From Candidatus Nomurabacteria bacterium (GTDB taxonomy: Bacteria; Patescibacteriota; Minisyncoccia; Phycocordibacterales; UBA9973), in the NCBI GenBank assembly GCA_023898605.1, contig CP060230.1:67944-131943 (forward strand): a stretch of 64,000 nt of DNA. Reading direction: 5' to 3'. A model generated the notes under the pieces. The model saw nothing but the letters and a program-made list of their open reading frames with translations, made no database searches and was not told where the DNA came from. Positions 4,469 to 42,486 of this stretch are shown one piece after another. The position numbers and the translations under genes were made by a program. Numbering within the stretch: position 1 is the first letter of the stretch; each line of letters opens with the position of its first letter.

Positions 4469-4488
4469 ATCCTGAGCTTGTCGAATGG

Positions 4489-4509
4489 GTAATAGAATTC
4501 AAAATATAA
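4489..4509 (+). repeat. second copy of the ychF 3' end (reads VIEFKI-stop)
   Basis: gtaatagaattcaaaatataa compares with gtgattgaatttaaaatataa at the true ychF terminus. It shares the 19-bp atagaattcaaaatataat with 4818-4836. Confidence 0.7.
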
Positions 4510-4514
4510 TTAAT

Positions 4515-4794: not shown

Positions 4795-4814
4795 GAACTT
4801 ATTAAGGTGGCAAG

Positions 4815-4835
4815 GTCATAGAATTCAAAATATAA
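4815..4835 (+). repeat. third copy of the ychF 3' end (reads VIEFKI-stop)
   Basis: The sequence is gtcatagaattcaaaatataa. It is followed directly by a terminator. Confidence 0.7.
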
Positions 4836-4840
4836 TAAAA

Positions 4841-15849: not shown

Positions 15850-15923
15850 AAAACTTATAAATTAATGTAGAATCAGAAAACCGGTTTATGCCGGTTTTTT
15901 GATTGAGAGAAACGCCCCCGTAG

Positions 15924-15966
15924 CCCCGACGCTATGGTCGGGGTCCATACAACTTCACTCGTCGGG
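15924..15966 (+). repeat. family-A GC hairpin module (ccccgacgctatggtcgggg...cgtcggg)
   Basis: The 27-nt string gtagccccgacgctatggtcggggtcc is shared with 16641-16667. Confidence 0.7.
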
Positions 15967-16112: not shown

Positions 16113-16195
16113 CAAATTGTTAGAGACATTGATATCGGGGGGGGTTCTACTTTGTCCTTCGAAACTTTAGTGAAGAAGGAAGGAATAGTTCTGGG

Positions 16196-16224
16196 CTTGC
16201 CCTGTCTGAAATAGGCGGGGTGAA
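16196..16224 (+). repeat. family-B GC hairpin module (degenerate copy) in the T-loop position of the ghost tRNA
   Basis: cttgccctgtctgaaataggcggggtgaa compares with cttgccccgcctgaaataggcggggtgaa at the Val locus. Confidence 0.65.
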
Positions 16225-16633: not shown

Positions 16634-16699
16634 GCTCAGGTAGCCCCGACGCTATGGTCGGGGTCCCGTACTTCTACAAAGTAGAACGTCGGGGCTCAG
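16634..16699 (+). pseudogene. 5' fragment of a ghost tRNA-Phe (GCTCAGGTAG[51-nt insert]CTCAG)
   Basis: Removing 16644-16694, which has ccccgacg...cgtcgggg termini, restores GCTCAGGTAGCTCAG. That string is close to the start of the intact tRNA-Phe. Confidence 0.55.
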
Positions 16700-16702
16700 A
16701 AT

Positions 16703-16963
16703 ATGGCGTGGGTGTATATATTAAAAACTAAATCTGGTAAGTTTTATATTGGTAGCACTATCAATTTAGAGCAAAGATTAAAACACCATAAAGGTGGGAA
16801 TACTCCTTCGACATATAGGTTGAAGTTTGATAGTCTTTTATTGTCTCAAGAATATGATACTTTGAAAGATGCCAGGAGTGTTGAATCAAAATTGAAAAAA
16901 CTCAAACGAAAAGATTATTTACAAAAAATTGTTGAAGATGGTTTTATTAAAATAAAACCCTAA
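16703..16963 (+). CDS. GIY-YIG nuclease family protein (86 aa)
   Basis: Shows VYILKTKSGKFYIGSTINLEQRLKHHKGG. The ATG lies 3 nt after the ghost D-arm CTCAG. Confidence 0.9.
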   Translation: MAWVYILKTKSGKFYIGSTINLEQRLKHHKGGNTPSTYRLKFDSLLLSQEYDTLKDARSVESKLKKLKRKDYLQKIVEDGFIKIKP

Positions 16964-16992: not shown

Positions 16993-17066
16993 GCTCGGGT
17001 AGCTCAGTTGGTTAGAGCACTCGCCTGAAGAGCGAGGTGTCGGCAGTTCGAGTCTGCCCCCGAGCA
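16993..17066 (+). tRNA. tRNA-Phe (anticodon GAA)
   Basis: The acceptor is GCTCGGG/CCCGAGC, the anticodon loop is CTGAAGA and the T loop is TTCGAGT. The flanks tttacaaagt and actttgtaaa extend the acceptor helix by 10 bp. Confidence 0.9.
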
Positions 17067-17092
17067 CTTTGTAAATAAGATTAGATGTGTAT

Positions 17093-17215
17093 GCTCAGTA
17101 CCGACGTCCCGACATGTGGTCGTCGGGAGCACGGAGAGCCGACAGAATCGTCGGCTTTGGTTAGAGCACTCGCCTGAAGAGCGAGGTGTCGGCAGTTCGA
17201 GTCTGCCCCCGAGCA
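17093..17215 (+). pseudogene. 3' part of the ghost tRNA-Phe with a ~57-nt double-hairpin insert after GCTCAG
   Basis: 17157-17216 is a 60-bp perfect repeat of 17008-17067. There is no matching 5' acceptor strand. The insert holds the hairpins tcccgac/gtcggga and gccgac/gtcggc. Confidence 0.6.
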
Positions 17216-17249
17216 CAAGATATAACCTAGTCAATTCTAATTTTAAAAA

Positions 17250-17389: not shown

Positions 17390-17914
17390 ATGATCTTTAA
17401 CTTAAAATACTTTATCATGTCGAATAATAATGAAACAGTTGAAAACCCTACCACTTCTGTAGATAAAGTGGTAATTTCAATCTCTAAACGATCGATCTGG
17501 TCATTTATTGGACTGCTTGTGGTAGCTGGCTTCAGCTATCTCCAATGGATAGGCTATTTATTGCCAACCTTTAAGCAGATATTTATTTTGATTGAGGAAG
17601 CAGATGCTTCAATTTTAAGCGTAAGCCAAATAGGGTTGATGTGGGTGCCCGTAATATCGTACGCCCTAGTGGCGTTAAATATCTGTCTTTTTTTTAATAT
17701 ATTTAAGGAATTAAAGAAAGAGAAAGGTCTCATTGCGGGTCTCATTGTGGGTCTCATTTGGGGTCTTTGGGGTCTCATTGCGGGTCTCATTGCGGGTCTC
17801 ACTGCGGGTCTCATTGTGGGTCTCATTTGGGGTCTCACTTGGGGTCTCACTTGGGGTCTCACTGCGGGTCTCATTATGGGTCTCATTATGGGTCTCAAAA
17901 ATGAGTACTCATGA
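17390..17914 (+). CDS. membrane protein with C-terminal (G-L-I/T-x) tetrapeptide repeat array
   Basis: Two N-terminal TM helices are followed by about 14 in-frame GLIAGLIVGLIWGL... repeats. Confidence 0.6.
   Translation: MIFNLKYFIMSNNNETVENPTTSVDKVVISISKRSIWSFIGLLVVAGFSYLQWIGYLLPTFKQIFILIEEADASILSVSQIGLMWVPVISYALVALNICLFFNIFKELKKEKGLIAGLIVGLIWGLWGLIAGLIAGLTAGLIVGLIWGLTWGLTWGLTAGLIMGLIMGLKNEYS
17726..17896 (+). repeat. 12-bp tandem repeat GGTCTCAYTRNG, about 14 units, in-frame
   Basis: I counted the units directly. One unit is shortened to 9 bp. Confidence 0.9.
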
Positions 17915-25765: not shown

Positions 25766-25992
25766 TTTTCTTTGTAATCTTTATTTTTCTTTTTTAGCCA
25801 CTTTTCGTGTTTTCTGGCTAGCTCATAATTTTTATATTCTTTGGTGTAAACTAAAACATATGGTTTTAGTTTAGAGGAGGTTTTTAATTTACCACTATTG
25901 TGTTCTTTTAATCGCCTAGTTGGATTATCAGAAATACCCACATAAAAACTTTGGTTTATTTTACTTTTTATAAGATAAACAAAGCAAGACAT
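25723..25992 (-). CDS. GIY-YIG nuclease family protein (89 aa)
   Basis: Shows FVYLIKSKINQSFYVGISDNPTRRLKEHNSG. The start codon lies 1 nt after the tRNA-Val 3' end. The last 14 codons read through the ghost D arm and hairpin. Confidence 0.85.
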   Translation of the reverse strand: MSCFVYLIKSKINQSFYVGISDNPTRRLKEHNSGKLKTSSKLKPYVLVYTKEYKNYELARKHEKWLKKKNKDYKEKLAQLAPPEIGGVN

Positions 25993-25993
25993 G

Positions 25994-26066
25994 TGAGCGA
26001 TAGAGGATTCGAACCTCTGACCTTTCCCACGTCAAGGGAACGCTCTACCGACTGAGCTAATCGCTC
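25994..26066 (-). tRNA. tRNA-Val (anticodon GAC)
   Basis: The cloverleaf folds as GAGCGAT-TA-GCTC-AGTCGGTA-GAGC-G-TTCCC-TTGACGT-GGGAA-AGGTC-AGAGG-TTCGAAT-CCTCT-ATCGCTC-A. Confidence 0.9.
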
Positions 26067-26474
26067 GCTCAAATAAAATTACTACAGTACAAATTGTATC
26101 AATAAAAAATAAAATATGCTCTACTTCACCCCGCCTATTTCAGGCGGGGCAAGCTGAGCTAATCGCTCGCTCAAATAAAATTACTACAGTACAAATTGTA
26201 TCAATAAAAAATAAAATATGCTCTACTTCACCCCGCCTATTTCAGGCGGGGCAAGCTGAGCTAATCGCTCGCTCAAATAAAATTACTACAGTACAAATTG
26301 TATCAATAAAAAATAAAATATGCTCTACTTCACCCCGCCTATTTCAGGCGGGGCAAGCTGAGCTAATCGCTCGCTCAAATAAAATTACTACAGTACAAAT
26401 TGTATCAATAAAAAATAAAATATGCTCTACTTCACCCCGCCTATTTCAGGCGGGGCAAGCTGAGCTAATCGCCC
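26051..26474 (-). repeat. four perfect 102-bp tandem units plus the ghost tRNA-Val 5' end
   Basis: Units start at 26051, 26153, 26255 and 26357, with a partial unit at 26459. On the minus strand each unit contains an AT-rich promoter-like region, GAGCGATTAGCTCAG, a 29-nt hairpin and GTAGAGC. The array ends in GGGCGATTAGCTCAG (26474-26460), which matches the ghost 3' acceptor. Confidence 0.85.
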
Positions 26475-26574
26475 TAGTGGGTTATAGAATATAACAATTG
26501 AGATCAAAAGTCGAATGGTTGCCTTGCCTTGGTTTGTGTTATAGTATCATCCTAAATAAATTTAAGTTTTTTAT

Positions 26575-27243: not shown

Positions 27244-27314
27244 GGCGACTTTTTTATTTTTGACAAAAAAGGCAATATGGGTGTATATTCAGAAATGAAT
27301 CAAACCCTCGCACC

Positions 27315-27857
27315 ATGCAAAACCCAAACTTGATTATTCGGTACATTTTTCCATTGATTAATTCAAATGGAATTGACTCTAGTATTGGATTTTTGACCGA
27401 CACAGAGATACAGGGTTGTAATATACACTTTGTATCCAATTTCTTCTGGAATGAATTTTATCCCACTAAGTATAGTGGAATGGAGATTCTAGAAGAGTGC
27501 ATCAATCAGTCACTCATGGAAAATCCACGAGAAATTTTTTTGTTTCTTGTTCAGATGAAGCAGGCAGACAAACTGATTTCGCGTGAGAAAATACCCATGC
27601 CATGCATTCACCCCAAAGACATGATTCTCGGAAACACTGTTCTGGAAATTCAAAACATTTCAGAACTAAAAAAGATGAGAGGTGGAGTACCTGCTTCGAT
27701 TTCGGATATACCTTATATCGAGGTTGGCTCAAAGAGGAGAGATCATGTCATCTATCCGTTTACCTTTGAGTTCGACATTGATCCAAAAGAAGTCGGAAGG
27801 CCATTTTTTGGAATCGACAGCGTCGAATTTCCAAACCACAAAAAACAGATATCTTAA
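27315..27857 (+). CDS. hypothetical protein, paralog 1 of a tandem pair
   Basis: Shares blocks with 27944..28504: FWNEF..KYSGMEILE vs YFWKQ..KYFGMEKLE, and IPMPCIHP vs IPMPMIPP. It has its own promoter and terminator. Confidence 0.5.
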   Translation: MQNPNLIIRYIFPLINSNGIDSSIGFLTDTEIQGCNIHFVSNFFWNEFYPTKYSGMEILEECINQSLMENPREIFLFLVQMKQADKLISREKIPMPCIHPKDMILGNTVLEIQNISELKKMRGGVPASISDIPYIEVGSKRRDHVIYPFTFEFDIDPKEVGRPFFGIDSVEFPNHKKQIS

Positions 27858-27864
27858 ATCACAA

Positions 27865-27888
27865 GCACCCCACGTCGGGGTGCTTTTC
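27865..27888 (+). terminator. terminator hairpin gcaccccacgtcggggtgc plus T-run, fused to the next -35 TTGACA
   Basis: Read directly from the sequence. A near-identical module lies at 28511-28534. Confidence 0.7.
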
Positions 27889-27943
27889 TTTGACAAGAAA
27901 TATTATATGGGTGTATATTCAGAAATGAATAAAACCCTCAGTT

Positions 27944-28504
27944 ATGAAAGAAACATATCTCATTTTGAGACAACTGTACTTTACCAGTATAGGAGAACCT
28001 TATATCTTCGTAAGCGAAGATGAACTTTTCCACGGAAGGAATTTTAACACCAGGGTTGAAGAAATTTATATTGTTTCTGAATACTTTTGGAAACAAAACC
28101 CTCATAAGTACTTTGGAATGGAAAAATTAGAATCTTTAATTTCTGAACGCGTTGAAGATCATAGGTCTGCACGTATTATTTTTTTCTTTATGGAGAAAAA
28201 TTATCTTGATAAAATTATCAAGAGATCTTGTATTCCTATGCCAATGATTCCTCCCGGGTGTATTGCCTACGGTATTGATATTCGCCCCATGCTTTTTTAT
28301 TCTATAGAAATCGATAAAAATCTTCGCATCGGACATATCGGAGACAAAGAAGCACCCATTGTGTGGACAGATGAGGAAAAACCAAGACCTTTGGTTGGAT
28401 CAGTATTTTTCAATTATGATTCCATGTTAAAATATCCGGACGGCATAATACCTTTGTATATAGCTGGTCCAGGCTTCAATGACGCTCGCTTTAAGGTTAT
28501 CTGA
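27944..28504 (+). CDS. hypothetical protein, paralog 2 of a tandem pair
   Basis: See the evidence for paralog 1. Its 5' region is nearly identical over 35 nt to that of paralog 1. Confidence 0.5.
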   Translation: MKETYLILRQLYFTSIGEPYIFVSEDELFHGRNFNTRVEEIYIVSEYFWKQNPHKYFGMEKLESLISERVEDHRSARIIFFFMEKNYLDKIIKRSCIPMPMIPPGCIAYGIDIRPMLFYSIEIDKNLRIGHIGDKEAPIVWTDEEKPRPLVGSVFFNYDSMLKYPDGIIPLYIAGPGFNDARFKVI

Positions 28505-28510
28505 AATAGT

Positions 28511-28534
28511 GCACCCCGCGTCGGGGTGCTTTTC
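28511..28534 (+). terminator. terminator hairpin gcaccccgcgtcggggtgc plus T-run
   Basis: Read directly from the sequence. Confidence 0.7.
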
Positions 28535-28583
28535 TTTTGACAAAATCTGATTTTTGATGTAATTTAACAAAAAATTGAAAACT

Positions 28584-29135
28584 ATGGTTAAGAAATATTT
28601 ATTTCCCAGGAACAGACTCGTTTTGACATTCAGGGGTTTAAGATTCACAATTGCTTTTGGATACGACAAAAACTGTTTTGGAGGGAAGAATAATATATTT
28701 TTTTCTTCTCTACTTTATTCTCAGGTCTATTTCTTTTTGGAGGTCCCCAATGACCTGGGCGGTATCGAAGCTTTTCATAGAATCCAGCCATCTTCTGGTA
28801 AAAAAGTGTATGCCGAAGGTGCTGGGGGACCGTTTTTCTACCCAAGTGAATTTTTTGATTTCATGGTTTCGGATATTTCTGAAGCAATTATGAATAATAA
28901 ATCACAGCAAGCAGAAGAATGGAAAAGGTTTATGAATAGCATCGTCGTTATAACCGTTGGTCCCCAGAAAAATATCGTGGGTTTCTGGTTCGAGGATGAT
29001 GTGATTCATGAGATTGGTGGAGCAGTTCTCACCAAAAGGTTCGAAGATCTCCAGCACGTGTTTGAATCTTTTCCAAGACGTATGGTTTTGGCTGCTGTAA
29101 AAAAAAGGGCGGGAAACAACAAAGGAAAAAGATAA
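28584..29135 (+). CDS. hypothetical protein
   Basis: I prefer the ATG at 28584. No family was recognised. The gene is followed by the terminator aaaaagcgccacttggcgcttttt. Confidence 0.45.
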   Translation: MVKKYLFPRNRLVLTFRGLRFTIAFGYDKNCFGGKNNIFFSSLLYSQVYFFLEVPNDLGGIEAFHRIQPSSGKKVYAEGAGGPFFYPSEFFDFMVSDISEAIMNNKSQQAEEWKRFMNSIVVITVGPQKNIVGFWFEDDVIHEIGGAVLTKRFEDLQHVFESFPRRMVLAAVKKRAGNNKGKR

Positions 29136-29565
29136 CTCAAAAAGCGCCACTTGGCGCTTTTTATTTTTGTGAAGTTTTGCCACCCTCCCGTTCGTGTGTG
29201 CGTAAAACCCCGCTCGTAAGGACGAGAGGGGGAGGTGCGAGCGGGGCTCCCTAAAAACAAAACCACTCATATTATAAGTGGTTTTGGAGCAAGGTATACT
29301 CATCTGTCGCTATCTAAGTTACCAGTTCTTATACAACTGCTCATCAAGCTCTAAAGATATTGATAACTATTGCTCAGTCTGACCTTTATTTTCCGCGTCG
29401 TTGGCGCAAAGCACTTGCGGCAACAGATTTTTCTTTTTTTCGAGGGAGGTCCTTTCTCAAAAGTTTTGATGCAAGTTTGCCAACTTTTTTACTAGTTTTT
29501 GCCATAAAATTATATAAATTAATTATTAATATCGACCAATATAGAAATATGTGGAAAACTGTACA

Positions 29566-29594
29566 TTGAAAACTTTCTATATATTTTCTATAAT
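29566..29594 (+). promoter_or_regulatory. promoter TTGAAA-17-TATAAT giving a near-leaderless lexA-MTase mRNA
   Basis: The TATAAT ends 7 nt before the ATG at 29602. The promoter is flanked and overlapped by the inverted repeat atatagaaa (29539-29547) / tttctatat (29574-29582). Confidence 0.55.
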
Positions 29595-29601
29595 ATCATA
29601 C

Positions 29602-31050
29602 ATGATTACAAAAAAGCAAAAAAATGTGCTGGATTTTATAAAAAATTTTCAGCAAAAAAATGCTATATCCCCATCATTAGAAGAAATTAAGAAAAAATTT
29701 GGTTTAGCTTCCGTTTCTACAGCTTCTTATTATGTTGAAAAACTAGAAAGCAAAGGATATTTAAAAAAAGACGACAAACAACACAGAGGAATATCGGTTT
29801 TTGAAAACGAAAGCATGGTAAAAATACCTTTACTTGGCGTAATTGCTGCTGGAGAACCAATACAATCCATAGAAAACCGTGAAGAGATTGCACTTCCAAA
29901 GAGTAGGATAGGCAACAACAATAATGTTTTTGCATTGAGGGTCTCAGGAGACAGTATGATCGACGAAAATATACAAGACGGTGATGTGGTTGTTGTAAGA
30001 GAAACTAAAAACCCCACAAACGGTGATAAGGTTGTCGCATTAATAGATCGAGAGAATGTTACTTTAAAAACTTTTTATAAGGAAAAAAAACAAATTTTAC
30101 TTAAACCAGCAAATAAAAAATATGACTCGATTGTCATAGATAAAAATAGAGAATTTGAAATTCAAGGAGTGATGATTGATATTGTAAAACAATCATTTAA
30201 CAATCCTGTAGATATTATATTTCCAGAAAAGGCGCAGAAACGAAAAACGACTATTCCTCTAAATAAAGTAGTGTGTGGAGATTGTGTTGATGTGATGAAA
30301 AATATACCAGACAACTCCGTTGACATGGTCGTTACTTCTCCACCTTATGATGATGTAAGAAACTATAATGGTTTTAGTTTTAACCTACACGACACAGGTA
30401 AAGAAATCTTTAGAATTTTAAAAGACGGTGGTGTTGTAGCTATGGTTATCCAAGATCAAACAAAAAATTTTGGTAAAAGTTTAACATCTTTTAGAACTAT
30501 CGTTGATTGGGTGGATAATATAGGTTTTAAATTATTTGAAACAGTAATTTATAGAAAACATGGTACCGAGGGGGCATGGTGGAAATATCGTTTTAGGGTA
30601 GATCATGAATATATGCCAATTTTTATTAAAGGAGAAAGACCCAGCTATTTTAATAAAGAAAATCTTAAGATACCCTCAAAGCATGGTGGAAAAGTAATGA
30701 CTGGTAGTGGAAATAGAAAGACTGATGGAACAACAACAAAAACAGTTACAAGACCTATAAATTTAAATAAATGCCGTGGAACTATTTGGGATTATTTGAA
30801 TGCAGGTGATAAGAATCCATTAAAAAGAAAACATCCAGCTGTATTCCCAGATCAAATTCCTGTGGATTTTATAGATTGTTTTTGTCCGCCTAAAGGCATA
30901 GTCCTTGATCCGTTTGTAGGTTCAGGATCAACACTAGTTGCCGCTAAAAAGCTCGGGAGAAATTATATTGGGATTGATATCTCACAAGAGTATTGTGATC
31001 TAACAGAGGAAAGATTAAAAAAGGATATACCAAACACCTTATTTAAATAG
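29602..31050 (+). CDS. LexA (wHTH plus S24 peptidase) fused to a beta-class N4/N6 DNA methyltransferase
   Basis: The N-terminal half has LexA features: cleavage site VIAAGEP, the Ser motif VSGDSM and the Lys motif VTLKTFY. The C-terminal half has MTase motif IV (TSPPY) and motif I (DPFVGSGST). The frame is continuous. Confidence 0.85.
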   Translation: MITKKQKNVLDFIKNFQQKNAISPSLEEIKKKFGLASVSTASYYVEKLESKGYLKKDDKQHRGISVFENESMVKIPLLGVIAAGEPIQSIENREEIALPKSRIGNNNNVFALRVSGDSMIDENIQDGDVVVVRETKNPTNGDKVVALIDRENVTLKTFYKEKKQILLKPANKKYDSIVIDKNREFEIQGVMIDIVKQSFNNPVDIIFPEKAQKRKTTIPLNKVVCGDCVDVMKNIPDNSVDMVVTSPPYDDVRNYNGFSFNLHDTGKEIFRILKDGGVVAMVIQDQTKNFGKSLTSFRTIVDWVDNIGFKLFETVIYRKHGTEGAWWKYRFRVDHEYMPIFIKGERPSYFNKENLKIPSKHGGKVMTGSGNRKTDGTTTKTVTRPINLNKCRGTIWDYLNAGDKNPLKRKHPAVFPDQIPVDFIDCFCPPKGIVLDPFVGSGSTLVAAKKLGRNYIGIDISQEYCDLTEERLKKDIPNTLFK

Positions 31051-32455: not shown

Positions 32456-32737
32456 AGCGCCGAGGTACAAGGTGCTAGTCGGCATGATTAGTAGTTTTCG
32501 AAAAAAGTTCGCGCATTGGTTATAATTTCATCACAAAGTACACAAAAATCCCACGCAGGTGGGATTTTTGGTCTTTGTGACCCTAGTCGTGGTGCGACCA
32601 TACGATTCGTTGCTCCCACAATGCTTTTTTGGCTTTTTCTATTATATCAAGTCGACCCTTGTCGAGCGACAAAAAGTGACAAAAGTGACACAGGTTTAAA
32701 TAAAAAGGTTACAGCAATCTGTAACCTTTTTGCTACT

Positions 32738-34030
32738 TTATGGATTTAATCGCTTAACATCTCTTGGGAGATAAGTCGCCTCGCGAACATTTGGCAGGTC
32801 GAGGATTTTCATAATGAATCGTCCAGGACCAATACCTGCACCTCCATGTGGAGAGCATCCCCATCGGAAAAAGTTGAGATAATCTTTTAATTCTTCAAGA
32901 GACATACCTTTCTCTTTTGCTTGTTTCTCAAGTATCTCAATGCGGTGCTCACGTTGTGCAAGAGTCGTTACTTCAATACCTTTAAACAAAAGGTCTGCGC
33001 GCTTGCCCCGACCTTCTTCGTTGCGCATATGATAAAAGGCACTTTTTGATACATGGTATTCAGTAATGAAGACGAAGTCGTGATTGTGCTTTTCTCGTAC
33101 GTATTCACTGATAGCGCGCTCTTCTTCTGGAGAGAGATCGTGTTCTTCTCCGCTTGCCACACCACGCTCTGCAAGTATCTTTTTTGCTTCAACCATCGTA
33201 ATCTGCGGAAAAGGCATACTAGGGATTTCTAGTTGGAGCTCTGGAAACTTTTCTTTTAATCGGGTAAATCCAGAAACTATCATATTTTCCTCGGCAACAA
33301 TGATGTCCTGATGAGATTCAATGTAGGCCATTTCAAAATCCCAACCAGTAAATTCTGTAAGGTGTCGGGTTGTAAATGAAAGCTCTGCTCGAAATACAGG
33401 ACCTGTCATAAACACTCTTTCAAAACCACTTGCAATAGCCATTTGTTTATAGAACTGTGGTGACTGTGCAAGATATGCCTTGCGGTCAAAGTAGTTAACT
33501 TCAAAGACTTCAGCACCAGTTTCGCTTGGCGTTGACATGAATGAGGGTGTATAGATTTGAATAAAATTATTTTTATCCCAGTAGTCACGGAAGCCTTTTT
33601 CAAGTTCCGTCCATACCTTGAAAATCTTTAGATGATCTGGTTTACGAAGATCAATCCAGCGATAGTCGAAACGTATAGGTGCTTCAGTTTCTTCTCCACC
33701 CTTCTTTTCAATAATTGGTATCGGTAGCTGTGCATCGGCAGCTGAAAGTACTTCGATTGAAGTAGCTTCTATTTCATAACCACAAGGTGCCTGAGCTGCC
33801 TCTTTCACAAGGCCTACAACTTTAACCACTGATTCTGTAGTAAGTTCCTTGGCAATTTGAAAAGCCTCGGCCTGTTCAATGGTAACGACTGTTTGCAAGA
33901 TACCAGTTACATCCCGAACAATAAGGAATGCGATTTTACTTTGCGCACGTATAGTATGAGCAAAGCCTACGACAGTAGTCTCTTTCCCTGAATACTCAGG
34001 AATGTCTTTAATATAGGTTCTTATAATCAT
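32738..34030 (-). CDS. aspS: aspartyl-tRNA synthetase, archaeal/type-2 (possibly non-discriminating)
   Basis: A 430-aa class IIb aaRS with an N-terminal OB fold and class II motifs. The C-terminal string GGAGIGPGRFIM..REATYLPRDVKRLNP favours AspRS over AsnRS. Confidence 0.8.
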   Translation of the reverse strand: MIIRTYIKDIPEYSGKETTVVGFAHTIRAQSKIAFLIVRDVTGILQTVVTIEQAEAFQIAKELTTESVVKVVGLVKEAAQAPCGYEIEATSIEVLSAADAQLPIPIIEKKGGEETEAPIRFDYRWIDLRKPDHLKIFKVWTELEKGFRDYWDKNNFIQIYTPSFMSTPSETGAEVFEVNYFDRKAYLAQSPQFYKQMAIASGFERVFMTGPVFRAELSFTTRHLTEFTGWDFEMAYIESHQDIIVAEENMIVSGFTRLKEKFPELQLEIPSMPFPQITMVEAKKILAERGVASGEEHDLSPEEERAISEYVREKHNHDFVFITEYHVSKSAFYHMRNEEGRGKRADLLFKGIEVTTLAQREHRIEILEKQAKEKGMSLEELKDYLNFFRWGCSPHGGAGIGPGRFIMKILDLPNVREATYLPRDVKRLNP

Positions 34031-34039
34031 ATTTATTAG

Positions 34040-34260
34040 AGATGAAGGAACAAAAATGCCCCTTCGAACTTATGTTGATAAGCTCGCAGGGGCGATAGTA
34101 TATCGCGGTGCCACCCTACTTTTTTCTCTGGCTCCGTATCGTTGCCTCCCCGTTGTCAGTGGTTCAAAGGCTTCGATATGCAGTAACGCTACTATATCAC
34201 AAACACATACTTAAGTAAAGCGGTAGCGAAAAGCTTTTCGCAAGTATGCTATGTATTTCT
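34040..34260 (-). promoter_or_regulatory. T-box leader upstream of aspS
   Basis: The minus strand carries AGGGTGGCACCGCG (complement of 34104-34117), matching the T-box consensus. The terminator GCCCCT..AGGGGC plus T-run lies at 34093-34052. A candidate specifier GAC-A is seen in cactGACAacgg. Confidence 0.6.
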
Positions 34261-34310
34261 AGTCCTGCATAGTCTTAGCAAACATAGTGAACTCTGTCAT
34301 CAATATATAC

Positions 34311-35594
34311 ATGACAGAAATAATAAAAGACAATTTAAAGTATTGTTTGTACGCCCGCAAATCAACCGAAGCAGAAGAAAAACAAGCTCTTTCTATTGAT
34401 TCCCAAATCAAAGAAATGAAGCAAATAGCTGATCGTGAAGGGTTAAATATTGTTGAGATTCGTCGTGAATCTCATAGTGCAAAAGAATCAGGTCAACGAC
34501 CAGTATTTGAAGAAATACTAAAGGATATAGACGACGGCATATTTAACGCCATTATCACTTGGGCACCAGATAGATTAAGTCGTAATGCAGGAGACCTAGG
34601 AAAACTGGTTGATCGTATAGATCAAAAGAAACTAACTCAAATCAAAACTTTTGGTCAGACATTTACAAACTCACCAAGTGACAAATTTCTTCTTATGATT
34701 TTGTGTTCTCAAGCAAAACTTGAGAATGACAACAAGAGTATTAATGTGAAGCGAGGTATGAGAGCACGGTGTGAAATGGGATTATGGCCAGTACAGCCAC
34801 CAACTGGATATAGAAAGCCAAATGAGAGATTGTCTAAATGTGAAGTAGAGATTGATCCAGAAAGAGCACCGGTTATCAAACAAATTTTTGAAAAGATTGC
34901 ATACGAACGATGGAGCGGAATGAGAGTATATTCGTGGTTGCGATATGAATTAAATTTTAAAACACACAAAGGATTCTATTTAAGTGTCGGAAATGTATTT
35001 AAGATAATCAACAACACCTTTTATTACGGACGATTTGAATTTCCACAAGGAAGTGGAAACTGGTATGACGGAAAACACACACCAATAATCAGTAAAGAAC
35101 TTTTTGATGATTGTCGATCTGCAATTAAAACACAGGTCATAAAAACCCATGGAAAAGAGTTTGCGTTTACTCGAATGGTGAAATGTGGATCGTGCGGATC
35201 GGGGATTACTGCTGATGAGAAGTTCAAGAAGTTGCTAAACGGAGGAGTAAATAGACATGTCTATTATAGGTGTACGAAGTCGAAAGATAGAAAATGTACG
35301 AATCCTGCAATAAACGAAGACGATCTATTAAAAGAATTTCAGAAAATGGCAGGAACTTTGGAACTTAATGAAGTACAACTTAATGAGAAATTAAATCTTG
35401 AAATTAAGAAATTCAAAAAACTTCAAGCGATGTTTTTAGGAAAGGACAACCCAGCAGATATACAGAAAGTTGATCTCAGAAATTACATGAAATTCGTTTT
35501 GAAAGACGGAACAATTTTAGAAAAACGATCGGTTCTTGATTGTATAAAAAACGATCTAGTTTTGAAAAATAAGATCATAATAGTTAAAGAGTAA
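34311..35594 (+). CDS. large serine recombinase
   Basis: Shows YARKSTEAEEKQALSIDSQ (catalytic Ser region), a recombinase domain and a Cys-rich zinc ribbon (CGSCGSG...YYRC). I prefer the ATG at 34311. Confidence 0.9.
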   Translation: MTEIIKDNLKYCLYARKSTEAEEKQALSIDSQIKEMKQIADREGLNIVEIRRESHSAKESGQRPVFEEILKDIDDGIFNAIITWAPDRLSRNAGDLGKLVDRIDQKKLTQIKTFGQTFTNSPSDKFLLMILCSQAKLENDNKSINVKRGMRARCEMGLWPVQPPTGYRKPNERLSKCEVEIDPERAPVIKQIFEKIAYERWSGMRVYSWLRYELNFKTHKGFYLSVGNVFKIINNTFYYGRFEFPQGSGNWYDGKHTPIISKELFDDCRSAIKTQVIKTHGKEFAFTRMVKCGSCGSGITADEKFKKLLNGGVNRHVYYRCTKSKDRKCTNPAINEDDLLKEFQKMAGTLELNEVQLNEKLNLEIKKFKKLQAMFLGKDNPADIQKVDLRNYMKFVLKDGTILEKRSVLDCIKNDLVLKNKIIIVKE

Positions 35595-35710
35595 AACTAA
35601 CTTTTTAAACAAAAATACCTAACGAGATCATCGTTAGGTATTTTTGTTATTCTTTATAGCAAGGGTATTTAGTGACCCTTGTCGAGTGCTCGAACTAGCA
35701 CTCGACTCTG

Positions 35711-35782
35711 TGACCCTACGGGGAATCGAACCCCGATTACCGGCTTGAAAAGCCGATGTCCTAACCGTTAGACGATAGGGCC
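35711..35782 (-). tRNA. tRNA-Glu (anticodon TTC)
   Basis: The reverse complement is GGCCCTATCGTCTAACGGTTAGGACATCGGCTTTTCAAGCCGGTAATCGGGGTTCGATTCCCCGTAGGGTCA, which folds as a cloverleaf. Confidence 0.9.
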
Positions 35783-35898
35783 ATTTGGTGGAAAGATTAT
35801 AACACAAGAAAATGATAAAGCAAACGGTATTTCCTTGTCAGATATATGTTTTGTGGTAAGATTTGTTTAAGCGTTTTTTCTGAAAAATCGGGGGAATA

Positions 35899-36088: not shown

Positions 36089-36140
36089 ATATTTGTAATA
36101 GATAAATTTCTATGTATAATCAAAAAAAACCCCTGCACCT

Positions 36141-36710
36141 ATGAAAAATATGCAAACCCTCTCCGACCATCAATTGGTCCAAATGTTCATGAGTGATGGA
36201 AATGAACAAGCTTTTGGTGAAATCTATCTTCGGTACGAAAATCCCGTGAGAGATTTTATTAAAAAATTGTTTTACGGCAGTAAAATGCCAAACTGTCAGG
36301 ACGAAGATGATATCGTTCAAGAAACCTTCCTGAATGTACATAGTGCCTTGAAAAGAGGCCTGTACAAGAATGAAGGGAGAATGAAGGCATGGATCTTTAC
36401 TGTCGCAAAGAATCTTTTTCTGACAATTTTCCAAAAAAACAAAAGGAAGCCAGTGTCGGAACTCAATGATTGGTATTCTAAAATGGTGTTTTTGCCAGAT
36501 ATAGAGAACAGAATGTTCTCCGAAAGGGCTTTCGAATTTCTACTAAAAAGCGGTAGAGATTATGATTGTTTGTTTTTGTATGCGATTGGTTTGAAATACA
36601 ACCAAATTGCAGAAGTCATGAATATCTCCAAAAACACCGTAGGGGCAAAAATATTTAAACAAAGAAAATCTTTGGAAGAGGTTTTTGCCCCAGAGAGATC
36701 AGAACGTTGA
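36141..36710 (+). CDS. ECF-type sigma-70 family factor
   Basis: Region 2 reads DIVQETFLNVHSAL...AWIFTVAKNLF. Region 4 reads the HTH YNQIAEVMNISKNTVGAKIFKQRKSL. Confidence 0.8.
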   Translation: MKNMQTLSDHQLVQMFMSDGNEQAFGEIYLRYENPVRDFIKKLFYGSKMPNCQDEDDIVQETFLNVHSALKRGLYKNEGRMKAWIFTVAKNLFLTIFQKNKRKPVSELNDWYSKMVFLPDIENRMFSERAFEFLLKSGRDYDCLFLYAIGLKYNQIAEVMNISKNTVGAKIFKQRKSLEEVFAPERSER

Positions 36711-36809
36711 AAACAACAACTGCGTGCCCCGTGCTGCGCAGTTTTTTTGTGATAAAATATTCTGGTTAATCATTTAACTAAAAAATAAAAAAATATAAAA
36801 ATCGGCACT

Positions 36810-36838
36810 TTGACATAAGTGTCGATTTTATGTAGTAT
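36810..36838 (+). promoter_or_regulatory. promoter TTGACA-17-TAGTAT overlapped by an imperfect inverted repeat
   Basis: Hexamers and spacing were read directly. The repeat tcggcac..gtgtcga flanks the -35 hexamer. Confidence 0.5.
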
Positions 36839-36857
36839 CGAAAAAAAGCACATTCAT

Positions 36858-37904
36858 ATGTCCAATAAAAAACCAGAAATGACCATAGACTATTCTAAGG
36901 CAGAAGAGGTTTTCGGAACATTGTATGATGCTTTCGAAAACAAAACTTTTCCTTTTGACCAAGTCGTTTTACCTCAAAGGAGGGATAACATGCCTGACTC
37001 GATAGAGTGGGGTGGTCGCGATCACGCACTTTTTCTGTTTACTCTATGCTACTACATGAGAGGTCAGATAAAGAGTGAAACTGCTGTAAAAAATCTCAAG
37101 AAAATATGGGAAGACAACAAAGATTTGTTCGACCCAGATTACTTGAAATTTGCGGACCACGAAACAGTTTCCAAGATTATCGAAGACAAGTTGTTTTTTA
37201 ACGGCCTCGGATTCGGATCAAAGTCCATTGCACCCCAATGGTGTCTCAACAAAGTCAAAATAGCCAATCATTGGTCAAGTGATCCACGTAAACTGTTTGA
37301 AAATGTTTCCGGATATGAAGACGCTCTAAAGGTCGTAGCAAACAAGGGTAAATGGAAAGCCGAGAAGCCAAACGGTTTCTATGGTTTCCAAGAGAAAATG
37401 GTTTCCATGCTCGCATATTTTTATGTTGATGCAGGAATTATTTCACCCCTGAGATTCCCGCCACCAATAGATTTTCATATCTTGAGAGTTCTGGTTTCAA
37501 ACGAAGTTTTGAAGATCAGTAACTTCTATCCCGGAATGAGTTTCTATTATGGTAAGACCACCGATATGGCAAGAGAGGTGACAAATTGGTGGTTGGAGAA
37601 ACATTCTAAAGATCCGATGATACTTTCCAACGTTCTGTGGCTTATGTCTCGGGACAACTGTGAAAGATCCCCAACAAACGGATCAATCATTGGAGAGTAC
37701 AAAGCAAGGAGTACTAAGGTGAATCCAAAAAATCTTTCTTTCAAGATGGCCACTAAAAGGTTCGAGAATACCTGCTTCAGGTGTCCGATCAAAGATAGTT
37801 GTAGGTATGATATACCATCGGCTTCTTATTATACACACGGAAAACTCGAAGTAAGGCAAGAGAAGAAAAAGGACTATCTGGTACAACTAAGGTTGAAACT
37901 ATAA
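36858..37904 (+). CDS. HhH-GPD-superfamily-like protein (putative DNA glycosylase) with C-terminal Cys cluster
   Basis: FYGFQEKMVSMLAYFYVDAGII..PPPIDFHILRVLVSN aligns by eye with the EndoIII hairpin region (GVGRKTA....VDTHI.RV). The C-terminal CFRCPIKDSC has C-x2-C-x5-C spacing. Confidence 0.4.
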   Translation: MSNKKPEMTIDYSKAEEVFGTLYDAFENKTFPFDQVVLPQRRDNMPDSIEWGGRDHALFLFTLCYYMRGQIKSETAVKNLKKIWEDNKDLFDPDYLKFADHETVSKIIEDKLFFNGLGFGSKSIAPQWCLNKVKIANHWSSDPRKLFENVSGYEDALKVVANKGKWKAEKPNGFYGFQEKMVSMLAYFYVDAGIISPLRFPPPIDFHILRVLVSNEVLKISNFYPGMSFYYGKTTDMAREVTNWWLEKHSKDPMILSNVLWLMSRDNCERSPTNGSIIGEYKARSTKVNPKNLSFKMATKRFENTCFRCPIKDSCRYDIPSASYYTHGKLEVRQEKKKDYLVQLRLKL

Positions 37905-37978
37905 GCGTTTGATTTGAATTTTCAGTCAAACGCTTTTTCTTTTTGCATAAAGTGGGGGATAGGAATATAATTTACATT

Positions 37979-38581
37979 ATGATAAAAGTTGACTACAAAG
38001 AAGCTTTTTTGGGGATACTAGGTGCGGTTCTTGTAATTGTTGCTATCGGAGTTGCACCACTGGAAAAAATCAAAAATTCTTCTACAAACAAAGGTGAGGT
38101 CGGTGTTTCTGATTATGAAAAAACTGTAAACGAAATACTGTCTGTTATTGCTCTATCTTCGGAAGTAAACGAGCCGGTGGGGTCTTTGTTTGAAGAATAC
38201 TACTCAACACATTCTTCTTCTGATATGAGTGTTGCAGAAAAGAATCTACTTGATCAAGCAAGACGAAGACTAGATGGGGCAGGGGTTTCACTCAGGATAC
38301 CAACTGTCGAAGGTGTGAATTTATACTCTATGCAAGGAGGTGACGGATACGGTGGATATTTCTGGGTCCTGTGGCTTTCTGAAGAAAGAAGAGCTGGACT
38401 AGTAGGTAATCCAGATATAACAATAAACTTCCCAGTAGAAGATCCGAGCGTGCTTATGGTCAGAACAGAAAAGTTTATGGTAGACGGAGAAGACCAGCCA
38501 TTAGTCAGGGGTTATCTTATAGAAAATGGTTTTGCAAACCCAACAGTCGGACCGTCTCCAGTGTTTGTAGAATATAAATAA
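37979..38581 (+). CDS. hypothetical N-terminally anchored exported protein
   Basis: Has a single N-terminal TM helix. No family was recognised. Confidence 0.45.
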   Translation: MIKVDYKEAFLGILGAVLVIVAIGVAPLEKIKNSSTNKGEVGVSDYEKTVNEILSVIALSSEVNEPVGSLFEEYYSTHSSSDMSVAEKNLLDQARRRLDGAGVSLRIPTVEGVNLYSMQGGDGYGGYFWVLWLSEERRAGLVGNPDITINFPVEDPSVLMVRTEKFMVDGEDQPLVRGYLIENGFANPTVGPSPVFVEYK

Positions 38582-38602
38582 AAATCTCCGCACAAAGCGG
38601 AG

Positions 38603-38654
38603 TTTTTTTATTCTCTATCTACTCTCTCATCGAGAAGTACTGGCTCTATGTCGC
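38603..38654. repeat. 52-bp duplicate of the rmuC 3' end (copy 1)
   Basis: Identical to 39673-39724: tttttttattctctatctactctctcatcgagaagtactggctctatgtcgc. Confidence 0.9.
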
Positions 38655-38675
38655 CAAAACTTTTTATATTTATAT

Positions 38676-38704
38676 TTGACTTATATATATTTATATAGTA
38701 TAAT
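38676..38704 (+). promoter_or_regulatory. promoter TTGACT-17-TATAAT
   Basis: Hexamers and spacing were read directly. Confidence 0.6.
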
Positions 38705-38723
38705 ATAAAAAAATAACAACAAA

Positions 38724-39668
38724 ATGCACCTTAACAAAAGCCAACAAAAAGAAGTACAAAAATTTCTACAGATGGTAGGTGCTAAAAAGCCACTTACCTT
38801 AGAAGAAGAAAAAAGACTCTTTGAAAAGAGTCTTTCAAAAGACCAAATTAAAAAATTATTGATTTCGCACAATGCTCGTTATATTGTGCATGTAGTGAAA
38901 GAACACCTTTACGAAGGTGTTGAAATAGCTGACCTTCTACAAGAAGGATTGGTAGCGACTTATGTCGCTGCCGATAAATTTGACCATACTCGTGGTTTTA
39001 AATTTATCAGCTACGCTACTCATTACATGAAAGCGTATATTTTGAAATTTTGTTCAGAGGAGATTAATTTTAGCCTAAGTGAGATGCTAAAACACATTAA
39101 GGTAAAAAAAATTTCTTCAATTTTTGAACAAAAGTTTGGGATATACCCTCTAATTCAAGATATTGCCTTTGACGAGGAGGTGATGGAATACCTTGGAATT
39201 AGTAGTGGGAATCTTAAAAAAATTTTTTACAAAATAGAGGTTCTTTCCTTGGAAGCTACTTACAAGGAAAGAAGGGATGGAGAATCCTATACCTCAAGTG
39301 TTTCACCAATCGATGTGTTGATTGATGAAACCTTCGCGATCGATCCTGAGATGGAGAAGGAGTCCTTCAGGATGGACTTAAAAGAGTTTTTCAAAATCTT
39401 AAATATCCGTCTAAGGACGGACTTGTCCTTTCTTATCTTCAATATAGGTTCGCAAGAGCTTATAAAAGATTCGAAGGACAATCTCGTCCAAGAATTGATG
39501 GAAGAATATCCATCAGGATATGAAGTTGACTTGGAAACCCTGGGACTCGTCTTGGGGATTAGCAAGGAAAGGGTAAGGCAAAGGATTCATAAGAGCATCT
39601 CTGAGCTAAGAAAAAGGGAGAAGCTTGTGAGTCTGTTTTTTGAAAAACATAGAAGCCTTCTTAATTGA
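38724..39668 (+). CDS. sigma-70 family RNA polymerase sigma factor (group 3/4-like)
   Basis: Region 2 reads DLLQEGLVATYVAADKFDHTRGFKFISYATHYMKAYI. Region 4 reads LGISKERVRQRIHKSISELRK. Confidence 0.8.
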   Translation: MHLNKSQQKEVQKFLQMVGAKKPLTLEEEKRLFEKSLSKDQIKKLLISHNARYIVHVVKEHLYEGVEIADLLQEGLVATYVAADKFDHTRGFKFISYATHYMKAYILKFCSEEINFSLSEMLKHIKVKKISSIFEQKFGIYPLIQDIAFDEEVMEYLGISSGNLKKIFYKIEVLSLEATYKERRDGESYTSSVSPIDVLIDETFAIDPEMEKESFRMDLKEFFKILNIRLRTDLSFLIFNIGSQELIKDSKDNLVQELMEEYPSGYEVDLETLGLVLGISKERVRQRIHKSISELRKREKLVSLFFEKHRSLLN

Positions 39669-39672
39669 AGGC

Positions 39673-39724
39673 TTTTTTTATTCTCTATCTACTCTCTCAT
39701 CGAGAAGTACTGGCTCTATGTCGC
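39673..39724. repeat. 52-bp repeat (copy 2), including the true rmuC stop and last 15 codons
   Basis: Identical to 38603-38654. Confidence 0.9.
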
Positions 39725-40718
39725 TAGATGCTCCAGCGATACGCAAGACGTCTTTGTCGACTTTCTTGAGTTCTTTTCCAGAAGAGTTATAGTGATTTAC
39801 TGCAGTCGATAAGGTGTTGCCGAGTTTGTTATGATAATCCTCATAAGCTTTCAAGTGTTTACCTAGATCTTCAACTCTTTTGATTATTTCTTGTGCGCGT
39901 TCTTCTATCTCTAGAGCTTTGAGCCCTTGGAGAACAGTTTGGAGGAATGCTAGGAATGAAGTAGGAGAGACTATGATAACTTTTTTTTCTTTGAACGCAT
40001 AGTCTATGAGGTCACGAGTGTTGACCTTGATACCGCCGACTTGAGCAACAAGAAGATCATAATATATAGCTTCGTGAGGTATGAACATAAACGCAAAGTC
40101 CATAGTTCCTTCGCTTGGTTTTACGTATTTACTTGTTTCGTCGATACGAAGCTTGAGATCGTTCTTGAACTGCTTCTCCAACTCTTCTCTTCGAGACTTA
40201 TCTTTTTCTTCGACAAGACGGTTGTAGTTTTCTAGAGAAAACTTGGAGTCTATCGGTATAATCTTGTCTTTGACGAAAACAACTGCATCGACAATAGTAC
40301 CGTCTTTGAAACCATACTGTACTTGGTATGAGCTTGGAGGAAGAACATTTTTCAAAACTGTTTCTAGATAATATTCGCCCAAGATACCTCTTTGTTTTGG
40401 ATTCTTGAGTATGTCCTGGAGACTTTCTAGCTGTTCGGCGAAACCTACAACTTGTTTTCCGGTTTCTTTGACTTCAGTAAGTTCGCGAGTTATTTCTCGT
40501 ATTATTTTTTGTGATTCTCCCGCTTGGTATCGTATAGATTCGTTGACTTGTCTTTCTGTTTCGCGGAGTTTCTGATCGAGAGTATTGGAGAGGTTGTTTA
40601 GTTGCTGTAGTAGTAGGGAAGAGTCGCCATCTTTTGGAGAAGAGTTCTTGTTTTTGGAAAGATAAAAAATAATCCCCAAAAGCATGATGACTATAATTCC
40701 AAAAAAGATGTTTTCCAT
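39678..40718 (-). CDS. rmuC: DNA recombination protein RmuC
   Basis: Has an N-terminal TM helix, a coiled coil, and the RmuC nuclease-like core (DAVVFVKDKIIPIDSKFSLENY). Confidence 0.9.
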   Translation of the reverse strand: MENIFFGIIVIMLLGIIFYLSKNKNSSPKDGDSSLLLQQLNNLSNTLDQKLRETERQVNESIRYQAGESQKIIREITRELTEVKETGKQVVGFAEQLESLQDILKNPKQRGILGEYYLETVLKNVLPPSSYQVQYGFKDGTIVDAVVFVKDKIIPIDSKFSLENYNRLVEEKDKSRREELEKQFKNDLKLRIDETSKYVKPSEGTMDFAFMFIPHEAIYYDLLVAQVGGIKVNTRDLIDYAFKEKKVIIVSPTSFLAFLQTVLQGLKALEIEERAQEIIKRVEDLGKHLKAYEDYHNKLGNTLSTAVNHYNSSGKELKKVDKDVLRIAGASSDIEPVLLDERVDRE

Positions 40719-42206: not shown

Positions 42207-42484
42207 ATCCCGTTAGAGATTAATCATGTTTTATGTTTACGTATTACAGAGTAAAAAAGACGGGAAAATGTATACAGGAAGTACCAAAGATCTTCGGAAG
42301 CGCTTTTTGCAACACGAAAAAGGATTATCAACTTGGACAAAAGGAAGAGGTCCATTTATAATGGTTTATTATGAAGCATGTCTCAATGAGCAAGATGCTC
42401 GGTCGCGTGAGACATATTTAAAATCAGGTATGGGAAAGCGTTATCTAAAAAATAGACTTAAGCGCTTCCTATCTCTAACGGGAT
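42207..42484 (+). mobile_element. minimal GIY-YIG element bounded by perfect 14-bp terminal inverted repeats
   Basis: atcccgttagagat (42207-42220) is the reverse complement of atctctaacgggat (42471-42484). ATGAA/TGAA is present on both flanks. Confidence 0.65.
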
Positions 42485-42486
42485 GA
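42226..42486 (+). CDS. GIY-YIG nuclease family protein (86 aa)
   Basis: Shows FYVYVLQSKKDGKMYTGSTKDLRKRFLQHEKG. Confidence 0.9.
   Translation: MFYVYVLQSKKDGKMYTGSTKDLRKRFLQHEKGLSTWTKGRGPFIMVYYEACLNEQDARSRETYLKSGMGKRYLKNRLKRFLSLTG

Follow-up and report, generated by a model that had tools for sequence, protein, structure and literature searches.

An exact 52-bp duplication of the rmuC 3' end flanks a species-restricted sigma factor gene in Candidatus Nomurabacteria

In a genome of Candidatus Nomurabacteria (Parcubacteria, CPR), the 3' end of rmuC is present twice, and the two copies, exact direct repeats of 52 bp, enclose a gene for an orphan sigma-70-family factor of 314 aa. Comparison with related genomes supports the interpretation of the sigma gene as a lineage-specific insertion accompanied by a target duplication that left rmuC intact. 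As to how it arose, we favour, with moderate confidence, one reciprocal crossover with a circular DNA carrying the rmuC tail, either site-specific or RecA-dependent; the circular intermediate and the type of recombination are what we infer. All coordinates below refer to the window, that is, the whole stretch of 64,000 nucleotides that was analysed.

The two copies, at 38603–38654 and 39673–39724, are identical at 52/52 nt, as an earlier interpretation made without database searches (hereafter, the sequence-only reading) had described them; they lie in direct orientation, with a start-to-start distance of 1070 bp. Chance matches to the repeat were found in 0 of 100 dinucleotide-preserving shuffles. 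The window contains neither a third copy at up to 3 mismatches nor a degenerate copy of the kind expected from tandem accretion. Copy 2 is contiguous with the rmuC gene and represents its functional 3' end, which takes in the stop codon with the 5 nt beyond it and 44 nt of coding sequence. The true rmuC stop and tail had been correctly assigned to this copy, except that the tail amounts to 14 2/3 codons and not 15. Copy 1 is an orphaned rmuC 3' end, consisting of the T-run, the stop and the last 14 2/3 codons, with no rmuC body attached. The first 7 bases of each copy are a T-run, which forms the U-tract for a GC-rich hairpin directly preceding it; since a T-run is found in any terminator, the extent of duplication for which homology is certain is 45–52 bp. 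The occupied junctions are GCGGAG + 52-mer + CAAAAC (junction A) and GAAGGC + 52-mer + TAGATG (junction B). The predicted fold of the 52-mer is no more stable than that of shuffled sequence (z = -0.7 and -0.35); neither the dyad symmetry nor the hairpin that characterises known att, attC or dif cores is present, and no known RNA was found in it. About 2 differences between the copies would be expected from neutral divergence and 0 are observed, which is a weak indication of copy homogenisation (P about 0.1).

The locus has the geometry hairpin, repeat, insert, second hairpin, repeat, rmuC. Leftward from rmuC, the window encodes the sigma factor, hyp212, hyp361, an ECF-type sigma factor, tRNA-Glu, a large serine recombinase and an Asp/Asn-tRNA synthetase; rightward, many Parcubacteria retain the order rmuC, ExoX, YqeY, holin-like, MYG1, Obg. 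The rmuC gene (39678–40718, minus strand) is intact and codes for 346 aa matching Pfam RmuC with E = 5.9e-55. Its C-terminal tail, EPVLLDERVDRE in the window, is homologous to EPVVLDDKINRE in L088 (GCA_041402165.1), a related genome; by this alignment, the tail encoded by copy 2 is the native rmuC tail, homologous in relatives. The left neighbour, hyp212 (37943–38581, plus strand), is membrane-anchored, with a likely start at 37979 that yields 200 aa, and has no match in Pfam, NCBIfam or PHROG. Hairpin A (CTCCGCACAAAGCGGAG, 38586–38602) is terminator-like on both strands, and the segment 38575–38665, folded as DNA, reaches -16 kcal/mol (z = -5.5). Together with the T-run of copy 1, hairpin A is predicted to form a bidirectional intrinsic terminator and is probably the original terminator common to hyp212 and rmuC.

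Between the repeats, the sigma factor is the only ORF with any family match, and the sequence-only reading was right in placing no integrase there, as it was about the promoter, the 314-aa sigma-70-family gene and the hairpin terminator that make up the insert. The sigma-70-type promoter-like site, TTGACT-17-TATAAT (38676–38704, plus strand), agrees with the consensus at 11/12 positions, a consensus match only. It ends 20 nt upstream of the sigma ATG, the same promoter-to-ATG spacing as in the neighbouring genes, which have such sites at 36093–36120, 36810–36838 and 37942–37971. The sigma gene itself occupies 38724–39668 on the plus strand. Hairpin B (39651–39676), again terminator-like on both strands, is in combination with the T-run of copy 2 the predicted sigma terminator and, on the minus strand, now lies 3' of the rmuC stop. 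The promoter and terminator functions are putative assignments from these motifs.

The sigma protein comprises regions 1.2–2, part of region 3 and region 4.2, and in PDB alignment it matches regions 1.2–3.0 and 4.2 of SigA/RpoD. It scores above the cut-offs of Pfam Sigma70_r2 (40.0 bits versus 24) and Sigma70_r4 (25.6 versus 24.1) and of the sigma-70 superfamily model TIGR02937 (57.3 bits versus 42.9). None of the named orthologue groups (RpoD, RpoS, RpoH, FliA, SigK, ECF subfamilies) was matched, the best score being 69 bits versus cut-offs of 190–570. A word-index search of 5.8 billion proteins retrieved as close matches only same-species alleles (97–100% identity), followed by proteins with ≤31% identity over most of the length and up to ~42% over short stretches. 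Exhaustive HMMER analysis of 1.84 billion representatives yielded one protein at E < 1e-30, which is the cluster of the sigma factor itself, the next best match being 36% identical over partial length. A scan of metagenomes (JGI) recovered one relative with 29% identity, viral contigs contained none, and exact-protein look-ups with the sigma factor and YchF returned no records. By these searches, the 314-aa sigma gene is restricted to one species. Compositional foreignness of the gene was considered and rejected, its GC content and native-like codon usage being ordinary for the genome (z = -1.26). Between strains, sigma pN/pS is 0.15, indicative of purifying selection and, thus, of a functional gene. 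Furthermore, pS between strains is 0.07–0.08 for the sigma gene, 0.04–0.06 for rmuC and 0.10–0.15 for ExoX; since the sigma value is comparable to those of the neighbours, the insertion predates strain divergence.

The duplication is present in independent data. Both copies are exact and equally spaced in three further assemblies of the species, one from NCBI (L001) and two from ENA (L002 and L004), which were obtained from different samples with different assemblers, and the name of one of these contigs, k141_36616, implies k = 141, which exceeds the 52 bp of the repeat. The four other same-species contigs, all from independent samples and assemblers, are 98–99% identical over the region, with unchanged gene order. 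The fourth of these assemblies (L003) stops 43 bp short of copy 1; we found nothing in favour of an artefact. We give next to no credence to the idea that assembly created the duplication, which had been raised as a possible objection and is ruled out by the three independent assemblies carrying both copies.

All 5 genomes sampled from the species are occupied, the arrangement being fixed among them, yet it is absent from relatives, so that the other objection raised beforehand, fixation in all relatives, holds within the species and fails outside it. The sigma gene is missing from 80 species-level loci in which RmuC is 59–78% identical and also from the nearer loci L085–L089 and L093–L096 (RmuC 76–85%). 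A second copy of the own rmuC tail occurs in 0 of ~70 relatives with >1.5 kb of downstream sequence, which implies that the rmuC 3' end does not serve repeatedly as a target of integration. The nearest informative lineage (L088/L089/L094/L096), with RmuC 76–77% identical, has a hyp212 homologue (70%) beside rmuC. In this sister lineage, the hyp212 homologue and rmuC are separated by a small gene (orf89 or orf95) that has a promoter of its own and whose hairpin directly adjoins the rmuC tail at the same TTTTTTTATTCTCTAT start; there is no duplication. The possibility that orf89 and orf95 are different cassettes in one slot was rejected, as they are 38.6%-identical homologues with a common promoter. 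In L085 and L086, a hyp212-like gene (30–33%) adjoins an ECF sigma gene, both being located between rmuC and tRNA-Glu. Given its presence in relatives, the ECF sigma–hyp212–rmuC frame is ancestral, and the 314-aa sigma gene is the lineage-specific insertion.

The relatives with an uninterrupted region downstream of rmuC, for which the sequence-only reading had advised a search, were thus found in part: sigma gene and duplication are both lacking in ~70 relatives, and a precise same-species empty site was not encountered, the exact-protein look-ups with RmuC and hyp212 retrieving only occupied contigs. Sister species, with an rmuC protein ≤81% identical, lack both features and are too diverged to provide a precise empty site. 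The 52-mer matches the own-species rmuC tail at synonymous positions too, and the sister species differs from it at >10/52 positions. An exact-match scan of public contigs (JGI metagenomes) with the repeat core gave 0 hits outside the species; similarly, the public contigs scanned contained no other genomic context for the sigma gene or the 52-mer and no circular junction. A search of the literature on rmuC as an integration site turned up nothing relevant.

The nearest recombinase to the repeats is a large serine recombinase (34311–35594), 3 kb away, to which the sequence-only reading had tentatively linked the duplication. The link did not withstand closer comparison. The recombinase gene resides in a discrete 3.13-kb element (32576–35718) with a 10-bp repeat, TGTGACCCTA on the plus strand, at its ends in the window (32576–32585 and 35709–35718), corresponding to the 3' end of tRNA-Glu. 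Positions 32574–35784 of the window share 3211 bp with L088 at 99.66% identity, although the rest of the two loci is only 65–75% identical and the rmuC protein 76%. Moreover, relative to its conspecifics L096 and L094, L088 carries the element as a clean insertion: L094/L096 display a precise empty site, CCCCG-TAGGGTCACA-AATTAAAGCG, at the tRNA-Glu 3' end, and in the occupied site TAGGGTCACA stands on both sides of the recombinase, a T-box-like leader and the tRNA synthetase. The same 3.1-kb unit, with 89% nt identity and the same ends, is found in other Patescibacteria beside tRNA-Arg and, at one locus, without an adjacent tRNA. The junctions of the element have no similarity to the 52-mer. 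On the evidence of these alignments, the serine recombinase has its own attachment site, independent of the sigma unit.

It is very improbable, then, that this recombinase inserted the sigma cassette by recognising the 52-bp site, in the manner of an SCC-like array. Besides its proximity, such a scenario could draw on a weak similarity to the Ccr recombinases of SCCmec in NCBIfam (CcrB, 127 bits versus a cut-off of 900) and on the fact that the 3' end of a protein-coding gene is where SCC elements insert. However, the enzyme is tied to its own element at tRNA-Glu, and the ancestral ECF sigma and hyp212 genes intervene between it and the repeat. Furthermore, serine recombinases perform crossover at a 2-bp core and create no 52-bp identities, so that the duplication would not be left by their action.

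Under the crossover explanation that we favour, the sigma unit, with its own putative promoter and hairpin terminator, would have entered the ancestor of this Nomurabacteria species in a single insertion, at the convergent terminator common to hyp212 and rmuC. The event would be a Campbell-type reciprocal crossover, in which a circle of ~1.07 kb recombined with the rmuC 3' end of the chromosome over the 45–52 bp that they shared; such a crossover yields the geometry seen at the locus and duplicates the homology, so that rmuC would keep its full reading frame and a terminator. The catalyst might have been a site-specific recombinase of the tyrosine type, encoded elsewhere, in which case the unit would be an integrase-less, CIME-like islet, or else RecA, acting on the 52-bp homology; the data fit either option. 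The length of 52 bp is close to the minimum efficient RecA substrate. No recombinase is encoded in or next to the sigma unit, and neither an integrase nor a tyrosine recombinase was found among the 36 window ORFs scanned. At present, the sigma factor would be a fixed chromosomal gene under purifying selection, expressed from its own putative promoter. Given the identical repeats, the unit would be formally excisable through the reverse reaction, for which the predicted junctions are GCACAAAGCGGAG + 52-mer + TAGATGCTCCAGC for the empty site and TTAATTGAAGGC + 52-mer + CAAAACTTTTTATA for the circle or a tandem. There is no sign of current mobility of the sigma unit, and its reading as a mobile element is unproven. 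The originally proposed attL/attR-like insertion into the rmuC 3' end therefore stands as regards the lineage-specific insert, the perfect target duplication, the intact rmuC and the attL/attR geometry, and falls short as regards a recombinase, a same-species empty site, another genomic context and recurrent targeting.

The identity of the 52-mer to the own-species tail, synonymous sites included, bears on the source of the crossover partner. Both copies are most simply host-derived, which argues against a foreign attP: a foreign element would not be expected to carry the 52-mer of this particular species, and this counts against a crossover with a foreign circle. Host-derived copies leave as options a host-derived circle, a template-switch accident or, less likely, insertion of the left block. 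The accident would be a one-off error of repair or replication involving no circle, by fork stalling and template switching or by homology-facilitated illegitimate recombination, in which synthesis at the rmuC tail switched to a sigma template and returned 45–52 bp behind its point of departure. We consider such an origin possible but rather unlikely. It accommodates well the own-species character of both copies, the uniqueness and fixation of the event, and the lack of a recombinase, of att-like symmetry and of site recurrence in relatives; in addition, the T-run in common could represent junction microhomology between two terminators. On the other hand, the other junction has no microhomology (GTCGC|CAAAAC versus GTCGC|TAGATG), a donor copy of the sigma gene was not found among the 1.84 billion representative proteins, and the insert is a complete promoter–gene–terminator unit, which is unexpected from an error-prone event.

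Insertion of the left block would reverse the order of arrival. The sigma gene would already have stood beside rmuC, and the ECF sigma gene, hyp361, hyp212 and hairpin A, together with 52 bp of donor rmuC tail, would have been received from a conspecific whose hyp212 directly abutted rmuC, through an illegitimate join just upstream of the sigma promoter. This is an unlikely history, although some of the variation between strains resembles what it would leave behind: between the window and the other strains there are 0 differences over 36145–38654, a tract of ~2.5 kb with copy 1 at its end, the nearest difference beyond it (AC versus TT, 38659–38660) comes 5–6 nt past that copy, the sigma gene, rmuC and ExoX differ by 1–3%, and all four other assemblies break at 36.1–36.8 kb. 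However, apart from the dinucleotide, the SNP-free stretch reaches 39074, well inside the sigma gene, so that its boundary does not coincide with the repeat; the population is a mosaic with further SNP-free patches, such as those at MraY, Obg and the GIY-YIG gene; hyp212 and rmuC are also neighbours in the sister species, which makes their adjacency ancestral; and the origin of the sigma gene would still need explaining. In full, the SNPs between the window and the other strains lie at 38659–38660, then none until 39075, and are dense over 39401–39819. We accordingly rejected a SNP boundary at copy 1 (0 to the left versus 2–3% to the right), as the SNP-free run continues to 39074. Gene conversion as the cause of the 97 bp free of SNPs around copy 2 was likewise rejected, because a similar 100-bp gap (39413–39512) is present in the same SNP-dense tract. 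The strain-level SNP patterns do not discriminate between the origins, and we draw no conclusion from them.

Among known systems, the sigma unit invites comparison with CIMEs, elements without integration and transfer genes that retain attL and attR (PMC6323972). As in CIMEs, direct repeats of the target flank cargo devoid of integration and transfer genes, and the 3' end of a conserved gene is reconstituted. By contrast, the sigma unit is a single gene of ~1 kb, has no known cognate ICE or integrase and no second element at its site, and belongs to a CPR host without visible conjugative machinery. No cognate ICE or IME was found at the same candidate att site, either in the window, searched for the repeat, or in the ~70 relatives, searched for rmuC tails. 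Site-specific integration leaves an element flanked by copies of the attachment site of ~40 nt (bioRxiv 10.1101/2020.12.28.424599). The islands formed by tyrosine integrases and the tycheposons are similar to the sigma unit in that copies of this length flank the unit, one of them completing the target gene. They differ in that the sigma unit is without an integrase, its target, in place of a conserved tRNA, is a protein-coding tail specific to the species, and the rmuC site is not recurrent in the ~70 relatives. Campbell-type integration is matched by the duplication of homology as direct repeats around the insert, with both copies being host sequence, although no plasmid or circle carrying the sigma gene is known.

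SCC and pseudo-SCC elements offer a parallel in their recombinase-less cassettes, direct repeats and location at the 3' end of a housekeeping gene (rlmH for SCC), and a recombinase with distant similarity to Ccr is near the sigma unit; that recombinase, however, has an element and a tRNA-Glu target of its own. SCC repeats measure about 15–18 bp. With integron cassettes, the sigma unit shares the organization of a single gene bounded by repeated sites, whereas the 52-mer has no attC-like hairpin, the sigma gene has its own promoter and no integron integrase was seen. A DDE/IS transposon was rejected: the insert begins with CAAAAC... and finishes with ...GAAGGC, which do not form inverted repeats, the duplication measures 45–52 bp versus 2–15 bp, and there is no transposase. 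Overall, the structure is of a known kind, either an att-like integrase-less islet or a Campbell-type scar, and its cargo, an orphan sigma factor, is what is unusual.

A bolder interpretation would take the 52-bp repeats as working att sites of a minimal one-gene cassette that has no recombinase of its own and is mobilised in trans. We deem this decidedly unlikely, and no better prospects attach to the broader idea that such a cassette exemplifies a general route of single-gene gain and loss in streamlined CPR genomes. Three other repeats in the window would be further instances of that route. Downstream of ychF, a 24/26-nt repeat surrounds a promoter, a 45-aa ORF and a hairpin; the pattern there had been equated with that at rmuC, but the repeat lies in intergenic DNA and the ychF 3' end is not duplicated. 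As for the other two, the tRNA-Phe 3' end is duplicated over 60 nt, and a 27-nt repeat encloses tRNA-Arg together with an ORF.

The analysis documents a sigma factor without close relatives (>~36% identity) that is kept under selection in one species and a clean 52-bp duplication that preserves rmuC, to which the neighbouring serine recombinase is unrelated. A more useful lead may be the 3.13-kb element of that recombinase, by which an Asp/Asn-tRNA synthetase is carried between species. If the repeats were real recombination sites, the sigma unit would be a recombinase-less one-gene mobile cassette delivering a transcription factor to a CPR genome of ~0.6 Mb and, if true, this would show how reduced genomes acquire regulators.

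The sequence-only reading had described the duplication of the rmuC tail as following the same pattern as a repeat at ychF. In organization this likeness holds: the 326-bp unit between the repeats downstream of ychF has a promoter of the TTGACA type, an ORF of 45 aa whose ribosome-binding site is strong, and a hairpin, so that it shares with the sigma unit (promoter, sigma-70-family gene and hairpin between the 52-bp rmuC-tail copies) the order repeat, promoter, ORF, terminator, repeat. The likeness does not extend to the site, however, since the ychF-downstream repeat, a 26-nt direct repeat with 24 of 26 positions matching (4488–4513 and 4814–4839), is intergenic and does not correspond to the 3' end of ychF.

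In the sister lineage, a small gene encoding 89 or 95 aa (11093–11362 in locus L088; 7490–7777 in locus L094) lies between rmuC and the homologue of hyp212, the membrane-anchored protein gene found to the left of the sigma unit in the window. A family search with this gene gave no match. It is just 38.6% identical between genomes, whereas its flanks are 92–98% identical in DNA sequence. The promoter of the gene is conserved, and compensatory changes are seen in its terminator hairpin. The gene appears to be hypervariable. In the window, hyp361 (36819–37904; 348–361 aa) has the ECF sigma gene on one side and hyp212 on the other. Searches of Pfam, NCBIfam and PHROG produced no match for it, no homologue was found in the locus of any relative, and there are no flanking repeats. 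It represents a second single-gene insertion restricted to the window species, in the same region as the sigma unit. A small GIY-YIG gene (42226–42486; 86 aa) has the same sequence in all strains despite variable flanks. The nearest sister species lacks it here, and in other relatives it occupies scattered positions.

Several repeats are associated with tRNA genes. The 3' part of tRNA-Phe is duplicated exactly over 60 nt (17008–17067 and 17157–17216), with only 89 bp, comprising two hairpins, separating the copies. Immediately upstream lies a small GIY-YIG gene (16704–16963), and immediately downstream, at ~17251, an apparent truncated GIY-YIG start. The duplication is probably a leftover of integration at tRNA-Phe. 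A 27-nt exact repeat with a hairpin, GTAGCCCCGACGCTATGGTCGGGGTCC (15920–15946 and 16640–16666), bounds a 720-bp unit in which tRNA-Arg(cct) is found together with an ORF of 110 aa. Tandem 102-bp units (25950–26561), at least four of them near-identical, form an array that abuts and overlaps tRNA-Val (25993–26066, minus strand); every unit carries the hairpin CACCCCGCCTATTTCAGGCGGGGC, which recurs in inverted orientation at 16195–16224.

Repetition is also seen in coding regions. Within the 3' end of an ORF at 17390–17914, a 12-nt unit (GGGTCTCATTGC and variants; 17709–17909) is repeated in tandem about 15 times, and three paralogous genes of 180–186 aa lie in tandem at 27254–29135, promoter and terminator segments being repeated for each gene with a spacing of 630–646 bp. 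In a leucyl-tRNA synthetase of 1062 aa (5971–9159), inserted ASCH and NUDIX domains flank the editing domain on either side, and a single ORF of 499 aa (29551–31050) fuses LexA DNA-binding, peptidase S24 and N6/N4 DNA methyltransferase domains.

A 3.13-kb mobile element (window 32576–35718; L088 14687–17828; also loci L097–L100) is bounded at both ends by the 10-bp repeat TGTGACCCTA, which in the window and in L088 lies at the 3' end of tRNA-Glu. It carries the genes for a large serine recombinase and an Asp/Asn-tRNA synthetase, together with a T-box-like leader. The element is 99.66% identical between the window and the L088 species, for which RmuC protein identity is just 76%. Conspecifics of L088 lack it and have precise empty sites (~11686–11695 in locus L096 and ~11193–11202 in L094). 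Other Patescibacteria carry it at 89% nucleotide identity, with the same ends, adjoining tRNA-Arg. The recombinase family is very widespread and conserved, with at least 8000 homologues, the best 120 at 74–98% amino acid identity.
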